This document shows positions 2,089 through 25,095 of a stretch of DNA of 64,000 nt, in pieces. Source of the stretch: an uncultured bacterium. GTDB lineage: Bacteria; Verrucomicrobiota; Kiritimatiellia; RFP12; UBA1067. Location: NCBI GenBank assembly GCA_902761035.1, contig CACWIW010000028.1:1558-65557 (forward strand), written 5' to 3'. Position numbers and translations under genes: made by a program. Position 1 is the first letter of the stretch. Each line of letters opens with the position of its first letter. The notes beneath the pieces are model-generated. The model saw only the letters and a list, made by a program, of their open reading frames with translations, had not been told where the DNA came from and made no database searches.

Positions 2089-2209
2089 TTGCCTTTGAAC
2101 TGCTTTGCTGCTTGTTATGGCCTATAGAGCCCCAATTTCTGACACCTAGGTGTCATAACCAGTGACACCTAGGTGTCACGGATCACGGAAAGTGATTGGA
2201 AGCTCTTCC
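2089..2209. repeat. Left arm of a large inverted repeat, carrying 2 copies of the perfect 16-bp palindrome TGACACCTAGGTGTCA (2140-2155, 2163-2178; 23-bp phase)
   Basis: The reverse complement of 24930-25095 aligns almost base for base. The right arm has two extra palindrome units. Weaker similarity extends to ~2050. Confidence 0.85.
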
Positions 2210-2365
2210 TTGGCGGATTTAGCGATGCCTGTCCAGGTGTACTCGGCTCACGCCAACGAAAAATACAACATCCTATCGCGTGGTCGGAGGGGTGCTGTGA
2301 TAATGGGGATTATGCTATAATATTCGCCAGGAAGCCTTGAGCTTGACAAACAAGAGGAATAAACT

Positions 2366-3832
2366 ATGAGAAAAGTGGCAGTAAAGATGGTCGTGGGTAC
2401 GGTGGTTGCGGTCTGCGCGACGGCCAGTGCATACGAGGTGAAGCTTGATATTTCGCCTGATCGCGTGAGGACGCCGCTGAAGGTGGACATGGAGCGCATC
2501 GGGACGCTGCGTCCGCGTGGCGTGGAAGAAATTCACGGCTCCAACTGGACGCTCGGATGCGAGACGCTCGATCGCGACTTCGCGGTCTTCGACGAATACA
2601 AGAGTTTCCTCGCGCCGCTCGGCATCAAGACGATCCGCCTCCAGGCCGGGTGGGCGAAGTGCGAAAAGGAGAAGGGAAAATACGACTTCGCGTGGCTCGA
2701 CAAGATCATCGACTATGCCTGCGCGCAGGGTATCAACGTCCTTCTGGAGACCGGCTACGGCAATCCGATCTACAAGGGCGGTGGCGGATGGGACCTCGGC
2801 GCGGGGTTCCCTACGTCCGAAGAAGGGCTTGCCGGATGGGACCGCTGGGTCGAGGCGATGGCGACGCGCTACAAGGGGCGCGTGCGCGACTGGGCGATGT
2901 GGAACGAACCGGATTGCGGGGGGAAGACGCCGGAGTCGATTGCAGCGTTCAACATCCGCACGGCGAAGATCATCAAGCGCATCATCCCCGATTCTCGCAT
3001 TGCGGGACTCTCCCTCGCGGGCAACAATCCGGGGCATCTCGAGAAGTGCCTCAAGGCGATGGGCGAGGATGTGAAGCTCTTCGACTGGATCATCTACCAC
3101 GGCTACGCGCCAGCTCCGGAATCGTCTTACGAGAACGTTGAGAAGCAGAAGGAGGTTCTCGCAAAGTACAACCCGCAGGCGAAGATGCGCCAGGGCGAGA
3201 ACGGATGTCCAAGCGAGATGGCCACGAAGTTCGCGCTGAGCGGCATTCCCTGGAGCGAATACTCGCAGGCGAAGTGGGACATGCGGCGGATGCTCGGCGA
3301 CCTCGGGCACGACGTGGAGTCGAGCGTGTTCACGATCTGCGACTTCAACCACAGGGGACGGGAAATCAACCTGAAGGGCCTTCTGCGCATTAACTGGGAC
3401 AAGGAGGTCATCGCCGTCAAACGGGCGTATTACGCCGTGCAGAACGTGGCCAGCGTCTTTGACGACACGCTGGAGCGCGTGAAGAATTCCCGGTTCGGCA
3501 CGAGGGACACGACCCTCTCCACCTACGAGTACAAGAAGGCCGACGGGCGGCGCGTCCTTGTGTTCTGGAAACATGCGGACGAGACCAAATCGCTGAAACC
3601 GAAGTATGCGCGCCCGGGTGACTCGTTTGAGACTCGCCCCGCAGTGTTCAAGTATCCCGGCGGGCAGCCGTTCAAGGAGCCGGTCTGGATCGACCTTCTC
3701 ACGGGGCGCGTCTATGCGTTCCCGAAGGAGAACCAGATCGTCGTCCCCGCCGGCGTTGTATTTGTCGACGTGCCCGTCTATGACTCGCCGTGCGTCCTCA
3801 CCGAGCGTAGCGCGGTGGAAATCACGCGTTAA
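2366..3832 (+). CDS. Exported glycoside hydrolase, TIM-barrel clan GH-A (family not resolvable by eye)
   Basis: 488-aa ORF with a signal peptide (VVGTVVAVCATASA). Acid/base-type motif WAMWNEPD and candidate nucleophile RQGENGCP. Confidence 0.6.
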   Translation: MRKVAVKMVVGTVVAVCATASAYEVKLDISPDRVRTPLKVDMERIGTLRPRGVEEIHGSNWTLGCETLDRDFAVFDEYKSFLAPLGIKTIRLQAGWAKCEKEKGKYDFAWLDKIIDYACAQGINVLLETGYGNPIYKGGGGWDLGAGFPTSEEGLAGWDRWVEAMATRYKGRVRDWAMWNEPDCGGKTPESIAAFNIRTAKIIKRIIPDSRIAGLSLAGNNPGHLEKCLKAMGEDVKLFDWIIYHGYAPAPESSYENVEKQKEVLAKYNPQAKMRQGENGCPSEMATKFALSGIPWSEYSQAKWDMRRMLGDLGHDVESSVFTICDFNHRGREINLKGLLRINWDKEVIAVKRAYYAVQNVASVFDDTLERVKNSRFGTRDTTLSTYEYKKADGRRVLVFWKHADETKSLKPKYARPGDSFETRPAVFKYPGGQPFKEPVWIDLLTGRVYAFPKENQIVVPAGVVFVDVPVYDSPCVLTERSAVEITR

Positions 3833-3871
3833 ACAGTTACGATGTCACTAAAAAATCAAGGAGTATGGGAA

Positions 3872-23463: not shown

Positions 23464-23479
23464 AGGTAATTACACCGGC

Positions 23480-24748
23480 TTGCGTATCCACGCGGACGTC
23501 GATGGGGTGTCGCAGGGATACGTTGACGTTGCCAGCAAGACATGGACGGACAAGGCCATCGTCCTGAACCTGACCGCAGGCGAGCACGTCATCGCCTTGC
23601 GCGGAATCAAGGGCGGCGGAACCAATCCATGTGGCGGAGCCGACAAGATATCGCTTGTGCGCGTGCGCAACGCGGCAACCTGCGTGACGAACTCGACCGA
23701 AACGCTTTCCGAACTGCACATGAACATCGCGTCGGGAACGCTGCGCAATGACCATTTGCCGATTGGGGGCAACCTGAAGCTCGTCAAGGAGGGCTCCGGC
23801 ACGTATGTTTCTGGAATGGTGCAGACTTATTCCGGAGGGACGCTTGTGGCTGGCGGAACGGCGCAGCCTCCGGATGGGACGGGCGCGAACGCCACGTACA
23901 GCGGGACGAAGTACAGGGCGTTCGGCACGGGCGTGCTAACCGTGTCGGAGGGGGCGGTCTTCGACCTTCGCGGCAATTACGACTACACCTACATCGCCCT
24001 TGACGGCGGCACGTTGAGGAACAGTGGTTTCCACATGACCCAAACCTCCTGGGGTGGAGCATCCCTGGTGGCGTTGACGAAAGACTCCTACATCGACATG
24101 AAGGTGAAGATTGTGTTTGGAACTGGCATCGATGCGGTTGACCTCAACGGGAAAACTCTTTTTGTGAATGCGACACCAGGCGCTGTTCTTACTGTAAGGT
24201 GTCAGAGCATCGAGAATGGGACGATATCGTCTTCTGGCGGGGGATGGCTGGACGTTTCTTGCCGCGACATGAGCGGTGTACGTCTTGAAGTGGCAAGTTC
24301 ATTCAACCTGGTTGCAAACGTCGAGGTCATTGACTACACGAGTTCATACTTGGCGAGCAACTATGATGGAGTGGCTGGCAACAATGGAAGCGGAGTGATT
24401 GGCGTTGCGGGGGTGTTCAAGCCACTGACGGACTACTGGCACGCATGCGAACTGCATGGAGGCGCGACAATCGACCTATCGGAGAGGACCAGTGAACTGT
24501 CCGCCGTCTCGCTCTTCAGCAAGGGAGCGAAGAATCTTGCCTTCACGACCGGTGCGCGGGTGAACGTGAAGTTGGGTACGCGGTCCGTTTCCGCCGGCGA
24601 GAGGATCATCGGCTGGACCGAAGACACGAAGCCGGCCAACGTCGGCACGGTGAAGTTCGTGCGCGGCGATGCGGATCGCAACTACGGGTTTGTCGTGAAA
24701 GATGACGGTCTGTATATTGCCAAGGGCATGATGGTAATTGTCAGGTAA
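23480..24748 (+). pseudogene. 5'-truncated beta-helix surface protein (CBM-like tail followed by autotransporter-associated PATR-type repeats)
   Basis: The frame opens with no RBS or signal peptide in the middle of a CBM-like segment (GEHVIALRGIKGGGTNPCGGADKISLVRV). PATR-like repeats (LVKEGSGTYVSGMVQTYSGGTLVAGGT) follow. Confidence 0.5.
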
Positions 24749-24929
24749 CCCGTGTCCAACATCCCGATCTTCGGCGGCGGAAGTGCGCCAGATCCGTTTC
24801 GCGCCCATTTCCGGACATTTCGGTCAGCAGAACATCATCGACTGCAGTGCGCGTTGTAACAGTGGGGGCGAGCCGCTCACGATTCCCCCGACCTGATGAA
24901 GGCCCATGCGCACCTCGACTCGCTCGTTG

Positions 24930-25095
24930 GAAGAGCTTCCAATCACTGTCTGTGATCCGTGACACCTAGGTGTCAGGGGTTGTGACACCTAGGTGTCAGA
25001 GGGTATGACACCTAGGTGTCATAGGGTGTGACACCTAGGTGTCACAAATCGGCGCTCTAAAGGTCATAACAAACAGGAAAGCAGTTCAAAGGCAA
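24930..25095. repeat. Right arm of the inverted repeat, with 4 copies of TGACACCTAGGTGTCA at an exact 23-bp phase (24960, 24983, 25006, 25029)
   Basis: Direct reading. The reverse complement matches 2089-2209. Similarity resumes at ~25170-25205 after an inserted low-complexity block. Confidence 0.85.

Follow-up and report, generated by a model that had tools for sequence, protein, structure and literature searches.

Repetitive extragenic palindromes (REPs) and the bacterial interspersed mosaic elements (BIMEs) of Escherichia coli and other Proteobacteria are short extragenic palindromes, grouped in spaced clusters within mosaics of motifs, and are substrates for rearrangement (PMC3333891, PMC2817692). 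REP doublets forming hairpins (REPINs) are mobilised in Pseudomonas by REP-associated tyrosine transposases (RAYTs) (PMC3116915, PMC3337134). Elements resembling miniature inverted-repeat transposable elements (MITEs) include the Correia/NEMIS, RUP and ERIC families (reviewed in PMC3184786). A previously undescribed family of dispersed extragenic palindromic mosaic repeats is present in the genome of an uncultured rumen Kiritimatiellae bacterium, where two of its copies form inverted arms around 22.7 kb of the window analysed here (the whole stretch of 64,000 nt, contig CACWIW010000028.1). With a probability of roughly 80%, each arm is a decayed copy of a BIME/REPIN-like mosaic repeat, lineage-specific, non-coding and extragenic, on which homologous recombination acts. 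Their inverted orientation around the 22.7 kb is incidental.

The core of the element is a perfect 16-bp palindrome, TGACACCTAGGTGTCA, found as originally predicted at 2140, 2163, 24960, 24983, 25006 and 25029; no version with one or two mismatches exists elsewhere in the 64 kb, and the chance expectation is 0.00 (100 shuffles). Together with a 7-nt G-rich spacer the palindrome makes a 23-bp unit. The phasing is confirmed by Tandem Repeats Finder (period 23, 3.7 copies at 24959-25044); a 23-bp period corresponds to 2.2 helical turns, against the about two first proposed. The arms are indeed reverse complements of each other (88% for 2088-2178 versus 25006-25096, 93% for 2138-2209 versus 24929-25000), both end with the inward-pointing motif CACGGATCAC(G/A)GA(A/C)AGTGATTGGAAGCTCTTCC, and the heptamer interruption of the right arm is a (GGGAATT)x3.9 tract inside an insert of ~88 nt. 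The right copy is truncated at 24929 relative to fuller copies at other loci. CTAG is about eight-fold under-represented in the window (positions 1-64000; 29 observed versus 234 expected from base composition), and all six CCTAGG sites lie inside palindrome units. This new repeat family from a poorly studied phylum (Kiritimatiellae) has an unusual architecture, with perfect CTAG-centred palindromes in a strict 23-bp register within a CTAG-avoiding genome. The modules of both copies, together with further copies recovered as sequence, are compiled in Table 1.

Table 1. Modules of the two window copies and other copies of the repeat (positions are those of the window; depth is summed contig depth in rumen DNA run X1)
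Feature	Position or source	Strand	Units	Depth in X1	Remarks
Module C, left copy	2043..2082	-		~390-550 (flanks 16-20)	independent high-copy module; homologous to 25185-25220
Module A, left copy	2086..2139	-		~225-330	GAAATTGGGGCTCTATAGGCCATAACAAGCAGCAAAGCAGTTCAAAGGCAAAAC on the - strand; identity 83-91% among four copies
Two-unit array	2140..2178	-	2	~1,000-1,280 (units)	16-bp perfect palindrome twice, 7-nt spacer; both units in five assemblies
Module B with B-distal TTGGCGGATTTAGCGATGCC, left copy	2179..2229	-		~760-990	depth down to 16 at 2230
Gene 3'-end relic (...PDLMKAHAHLDSLV)	24872..24928	+			82.8% identical to L117 2827-2882; cut off by the element
Module B, right copy, without B-distal	24929..24959	+			with the first unit, the 47-nt identical stretch and site of the observed exchange
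Four-unit array	24960..25044	+	4		spacers GGGGTTG, GAGGGTA, TAGGGTG; four units in three parental assemblies and L160
Module A, right copy	25045..25096	+			heterogeneous loose ends at 25096, most of them extended by ACATGGGAAATAA..., like L117 and the Mac locus
Insert relative to left copy	25097..25184	+			AAAGGTCGCAAAG module and (GGGAATT)n at 25121-25147; both belong to the fuller composite elsewhere
Module C, right copy	25185..25220	+			by alignment; loose end at 25194-25196 matches left-type sequence of other copies
Copy L117	metagenome contig JAEEGL014391669		1		fuller flanks; shares the gene 3'-end relic with the right arm
Copy M (Mac locus)	L154, L156, L157 (three assemblies)		3		full ~350-nt composite; identical across the three assemblies
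Copy L124	ODAI012594430		4		centres CTGG, CTGG, CTAG, GCGG; TGACAC/GTGTCA stems intact
X25 contig	151-nt contig, run X25		1		single unit flanked by diverged modules B and A

The repeat is built of modules and present in many copies. When Logan contigs of four rumen DNA runs (X1-X4) are placed on the arms and their depths summed, the unique flank of the left arm has a depth of 16-20, ~18, ~11 and ~5, against 1032, 952, 660 and 144 over 2163-2213, giving element-to-flank ratios of 57, 51, 60 and 28. The right arm is likewise elevated, up to 1,618-1,987 over the units. In 8-nt bins of X1, each module has its own plateau and the left element has sharp edges at 2038 and 2229, so that the repeated DNA extends from 2038/2043 to 2229 and the original extent of 2089-2209 was too short. 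Contigs break at 2043/2048, 2082-2086, 2229, 24929 and 25096, and the loose ends at module edges agree with one another only to 40-70%, which indicates many different neighbours. Variant contigs individually have near single-copy depth (10-29). Since the depth excess also tracks the organism's own depth, most copies probably reside in this organism; depth thus points to tens of copies per genome, with modules that are partly independent. Such repeats explain the poor assembly of these genomes.

Other copies recovered as sequence reveal a full composite of ~350 nt. It consists of a distal hairpin TTCCGCGCC...GGCGCGGAA, B-distal (common to the left copy, L117 and the Mac-locus copy), module B, one to four units and module A, followed by the ACATGGGAAATAA... 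module, the AAAGGTCGCAAAG module and GGGAATT heptamers. Module B contains a small hairpin ATCAC-N5-GTGAT and a near-palindrome, GGAAGCTCTTCC. All sequenced copies are intergenic; M has a Mac/hexapeptide acetyltransferase gene on one side and a 486-aa gene on the other. Five close copies can be compared, namely the left arm (two units), the right arm (four), M (three), L117 (one) and the contig L134 (three), the last being a recombinant described below. Unit number varies among loci and is stable within a locus, being constant in the left arm across five assemblies and in the right arm and in M across three each; thus the arrays are not hypervariable. Contigs identical to the unique flank of L117 are found in X1 and X4, at depths close to the unique-flank depth of each run. 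L117 had been considered as the orthologous right-arm site beside amt, a candidate rejected on finding that its 403-aa open reading frame (ORF) is not an ammonium transporter, and it is treated as a separate copy.

Palindrome and 7-nt spacing are kept, whereas the flanks diverge. Among the five close copies, the palindrome is perfect in 13/13 units, with an identity of 83-91% for module A and of 94-100% (29-31/31) for module B. The spacers of the family are 7 nt long in 9/9 cases, G-rich and of the same polarity (CTGGTTA, GGGGTTG, GAGGGTA, TAGGGTG, AGGGTTG, GGAGGTA, TGGGGCG and TGGGGTG being those listed for the perfect units and L124), and the period is exactly 23 in 9/9 intervals. In minimum-free-energy folds, adjacent units pair into 16-bp stems with 7-nt loops (16-17 bp for the left two-unit stem), and the four-unit array forms nested 16-bp stems; across these folds, pairing joins unit 1 to unit 2 and the outer units to one another. 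Relative to shuffled sequences, fold z-scores are -4.4 (left, RNA), -7.6 (right, RNA) and -10.3 (array, DNA). The module B hairpin keeps its stem with loops GGAAA or AGACA among copies, and copies of the distal hairpin differ only in the loop. A constraint is indicated by the intact palindromes and their invariant spacing; hairpin formation and protein binding would account for it equally well.

Compared with described systems, the family would by analogy function most like REP/BIME clusters and REPINs. It shares with REP/BIME the short extragenic palindromic unit, high copy number (by depth), regular spacing, variable unit number, mosaic structure, hairpins and use as a substrate for rearrangement. 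Unlike REPs, which are imperfect, 20-40 bp long and alternate in orientation, the units are perfect 16-bp palindromes in a head-to-tail 23-bp register; the array is a direct tandem repeat, with a palindromic unit and spacers of one polarity. The conserved GTAG/CGTC tetranucleotide found at one end of the REP palindrome (PMC3733652) is absent on both strands next to the 13 perfect units and the four L124 units, whose neighbours are spacers or modules A and B. Other differences are the host, which belongs to another phylum (Kiritimatiellae) in the Planctomycetes-Verrucomicrobia-Chlamydiae (PVC) group, the ~350-nt composite with its heptamer microsatellite, and the failure to identify a RAYT gene among the scanned window genes. 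That scan covered the genes in 1-12268 and 17480-30748 and gave no Pfam hit to any recombinase or transposase family, with a 1024-aa ORF (12622-15696) outside its range and a 741-aa gene (16214-18439) covered, in its part beyond that range, solely by a precomputed IpgD annotation. As in REPINs, the doublet folds as a single long hairpin (16-bp stems, 7-nt loops) and there are probably tens of diverged copies per genome. Unlike in REPINs, direct and inverted doublets are identical, because the unit itself is palindromic, and copies with one and three units exist. With MITE-like elements and Rickettsia palindromic elements the family has in common that it is non-coding, dispersed, 150-350 nt long, structured, lineage-restricted and strain-variable. 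It is not a classical MITE, since no terminal inverted repeats beyond the internal palindromes occur in the left-copy, L117 and L134 composites; it also differs in that its modules vary in copy number. No target-site duplication or empty site came to light through relatives, in which homologues of the adjacent GH42-like gene are paralogues.

Two copies underwent reciprocal exchange in a natural strain. The left-junction contigs of five assemblies (ERZ27279956, ERZ28613601, ERZ27279959, ERZ913629 and ERZ1029111) are all in reference orientation, as are the contigs crossing the whole right arm (ERZ27279956, ERZ913629 and ERZ28613601), and no left-by-right inversion product is present in the five, which are short-read assemblies with rare variants below their reach. 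The non-reference junctions of the right arm are right-by-M only. ERZ27279959 carries both reciprocal junctions between the right arm and M, a third copy outside the window. In L134 (k141_785761), the window island, the gene for a 422-aa protein and the inner flank up to 24928 are followed by module B and unit 1, beyond which the contig enters an element that matches the M copy at 100% (AGGGTTG spacer, three units, module A of M type) and ends in the Mac gene flank. In L160 (k141_265254), the window is followed from 29978 back to 24929 at 100% identity, including the outer flank and a four-unit element of right-arm type; beyond this come B-distal and, from the M locus, the flank with the 486-aa gene. 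A four-way alignment shows a clean reciprocal exchange, with the crossover inside 47 nt identical in both parents, GGAAGAGCTTCCAATCACTGTCTGTGATCCGTGACACCTAGGTGTCA, that is GGAAGAGCTTCCAATCACTGTCTGTGATCCG plus the first palindrome. The parental junctions co-occur in ERZ913629 and ERZ28613601, and in ERZ27279959 the 422-aa, Mac and 82-aa proteins are encoded solely on the recombinant contigs. Assembly chimerism is unlikely, because the contig names imply a final k of 141, far longer than the 47 nt of identity. Ordinary homologous recombination would predict such a crossover site, which is in one of the two longest stretches of unbroken identity (47 and 45 nt). Most simply, the event is read as an inversion by two inverted copies sharing a replicon; the alternatives are translocation or a mixed population.

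Public assemblies alone thus document a reciprocal exchange that reconnects two effector-like islands in a natural rumen strain; the consequence demonstrated for the repeat is rearrangement between its copies where variable effector-like islands have their borders. Of the recombination foreseen in the original prediction, the ability of copies to recombine is borne out by the right arm and M, while inversion of the 22.7 kb between the arms is not. Likewise, the reading of the arms as a dedicated pair bounding an invertible or operator-controlled segment is not supported: the repeat is multi-copy, the left-by-right product is absent and the scanned genes include no recombinase. For annotation, this means that there is no evidence for an invertible or transposable 22.7-kb unit carrying tyrS and rtcR.

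The mosaic-repeat reading suggests the following scenario. Arrays would have arisen by tandem duplication of the 23-bp unit, through slippage or unequal exchange. The palindromes would matter as hairpins, neighbouring units pairing into a REPIN-like 16-bp stem in single-stranded DNA or RNA that is possibly recognised by a trans-acting enzyme. As their main effect on the genome, dispersed copies would provide portable homology for RecA-type recombination and reshuffle the variable effector-like islands. The spread of the family may be due to an HUH-type enzyme acting in trans or to segmental duplication. The repeats are plausible drivers of structural variation in host-interaction loci. Several points weigh against this reading. 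Copy number derives from metagenome depth and not from a genome count, and could be inflated by related strains or species; just about six copies are seen as sequence. Both recombinant contigs come from one short-read assembly. A purely selfish or neutral repeat would leave the perfect conservation of palindrome and spacing unexplained. Finally, three of the four close copies other than the left arm lie in paralogous effector-like islands, which would also fit spread by duplication, and neither a mobilising enzyme nor a target-site duplication or empty site has been found that would favour mobility over segmental duplication.

The same conservation raises the question of protein binding. In plasmid F, sopC consists of 43-bp repeats, each with a 16-bp inverted repeat, and origins of the R6K/pSC101 type contain 22-bp iterons; the arrays resemble such iteron and centromere sets in their tandem units near a two-turn period, in a palindrome of binding-site size and in their variable copy number. 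Each palindrome could bind a dimer, with a 23-bp period permitting cooperativity, and the element would be a mobile protein-binding platform of operator, iteron or centromere type. A palindrome that stays perfect at invariant spacing despite diverging flanks speaks for this, as does L124, which varies solely in the central 4 bp, as two half-sites would, and whose array precedes, by ~50 nt, an ORF that encodes an HTH_36 domain (E = 1e-7); the left array is in a divergent promoter region, and the prevalence of close copies in effector-like islands also fits. However, no HTH_36 homologue or other evident partner gene is present in the window, L124 is surrounded by a mosaic of other repeats of the lineage, and the intergenic positions are divergent, convergent or co-directional at no fixed distance from gene starts. 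Moreover, tens of copies move along with unrelated hairpin modules, and 23 bp amounts to 2.2 helical turns, while hairpins account for the same conservation. The dispersed chromosomal copies, tens in number, and the lack of matches in plasmid and phage collections further separate the family from plasmid iterons, and it is not a plasmid-type iteron set, as no rep (or par) gene is adjacent in the window. An operator-type function is therefore considered unlikely.

Still less likely is it that the arrays are recognition sites of a lineage-specific recombinase or domesticated transposase that exchanges the flanks of copies, in a shufflon-like re-assortment of secreted-effector islands; if it did so, the crossover at module B and the first palindrome would be site-specific and not homologous. 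A related version, in which a dedicated recombinase acting at the palindrome/B junction programs the inversion of the 22.7 kb or island shuffling, is very improbable. It would account for the inverted arms, for the mapping of the one reciprocal exchange to module B plus the first palindrome and for the location of the element at the edge of strain-variable islands, but it meets with the lack of left-by-right recombinants in the five assemblies, the lack of recombinases among the scanned genes between or beside the arms, and the fact that the single event falls within one of the two longest identities. The ends of Tn7 and Mu carry inverted, unequal numbers of ~22-bp repeats. A 22.7-kb transposon of Tn7-/Mu-like type, with two and four transposase-binding sites in arms that are inverted and unequal in unit number and with a unit that begins with TG and ends with CA, can hardly be sustained, given palindromic sites unlike those of Tn7 and Mu, a cargo of tyrS, glycoside hydrolase, rtcR, arginase-family and effector genes with no transposase among the scanned genes, arms that each meet unique DNA within ~200 bp at either end and belong to a family of small copies, and other copies that stand alone.

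The family is restricted in databases. It is absent from 185,579 species-representative genomes (a set without the window's genome), from IMG/VR, from plasmids and phages, and from ~100 kb of more distant Kiritimatiellae contigs. A metagenome scan with the doublet gave no matches, and one with the single unit at least 80, of which, among the matches listed, only L117 and L124 are related. Searches of IMG/VR with the unit, the doublet with free centre and module B returned just three chance single matches, BLAST against plasmids and phages returned none, and Rfam has nothing at the element. The DNA is present in bovine rumen and gut metagenomes; RNA runs contain almost none of the organism. Candidate relatives were discarded. 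The 44 matches of the 16-mer in the 185,579 species genomes are single and all unrelated, and the sole literature match to the core sequence, the eukaryotic Brachyury T-site, is judged a coincidence. Two unrelated repeats have the 16-mer as their core: a 28-bp palindrome, GGTGTCTGACACCTAGGTGTCAGACACC, which recurs in metagenome-assembled genomes (MAGs) of Thermoleophilia and Actinomycetota, and GGTGACACCTAGGTGTCACCTAGGTGTCACC, on six contigs of one Saprospiraceae MAG.

Between the arms lie genes for two glycoside hydrolases, tyrS, an unknown gene, rtcR and an arginase-family gene, besides several effector-like genes in a row that have IpgD and CesT domains. Neighbours of the arrays are genes for a MIP channel, a GH42-like hydrolase and the 422-aa beta-helix-like protein, together with small ORFs. 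Homologues of the GH42-like protein are annotated as Kiritimatiellae MAG proteins; those of relatives are paralogues in other contexts and yielded no empty site orthologous to that of the element. Genes upstream of M and one L117 gene are paralogues of window island genes. A second effector-like island outside the window occupies L154 1-12582 (ERZ28613414 scaffold_152; also L156 and L157), with an element copy in its middle. The island encodes proteins of 986 and 940 aa with 33-40% identity to the products at window ~15200-15690 and 20280-23420, and proteins of 586 and 271 aa that have their paralogues at window 56665-58856. In the same island, a 67-nt indel in the 486-aa gene (L154 7445-7511 versus L156 1800/1801) divides it, in one assembly, into ORFs of 96 and 335 aa. 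L134 1-7542, aligned with window 12733-25021, represents a strain without 13076-15578 and 16197-18427 and is otherwise 97-99.5% identical; the effector-gene content of the island thus differs between strains.

Gene fragments and further modules accompany the repeat. The relic of a gene C-terminus adjoins the element in two copies (right arm and L117), its last ~20 codons being multi-copy by depth. The translations of 24872-24928 and L117 2801-2882 share ...PDL(V/M)KAHA.LD.LV, and L117 runs on with DKAYGLSP and a stop; this end is reminiscent of the C-terminus of MmeI-type DNA methyltransferases. The TTAGCCGCAAAGAACGCAAAGGTCGCAAA module of the composite is also found solitary, at window 7611-7673, 47079-47136 and 53018-53473 and at L154 6671-6728, and is a separate member of the genome's repeat repertoire. 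A segment of ~11 nt follows ...GCGATGCC past B-distal (L154 ~6921-6931, L117 ~2738-2750 and loose ends at window 2229); it reads ATGATACTTAC in the Mac-locus copy and the reverse complement, GTAAGTATCAT or GTAATACTAT, in other copies, and looks like a flipped hairpin loop.

At L124, the HTH_36 ORF was discounted as evidence of a cognate binder, the kinase family encoded upstream being found in many unrelated contexts without HTH gene or array. This family, Kinase-PolyVal (PF18762), comprises solitary genes of ~270-280 aa (L124 427-1269; L140-L148) with 224 cluster representatives, mostly on 1-2-kb contigs in unrelated housekeeping or defence contexts of Kiritimatiellae/Victivallales-like genomes, and behaves like a mobile or hotspot gene.

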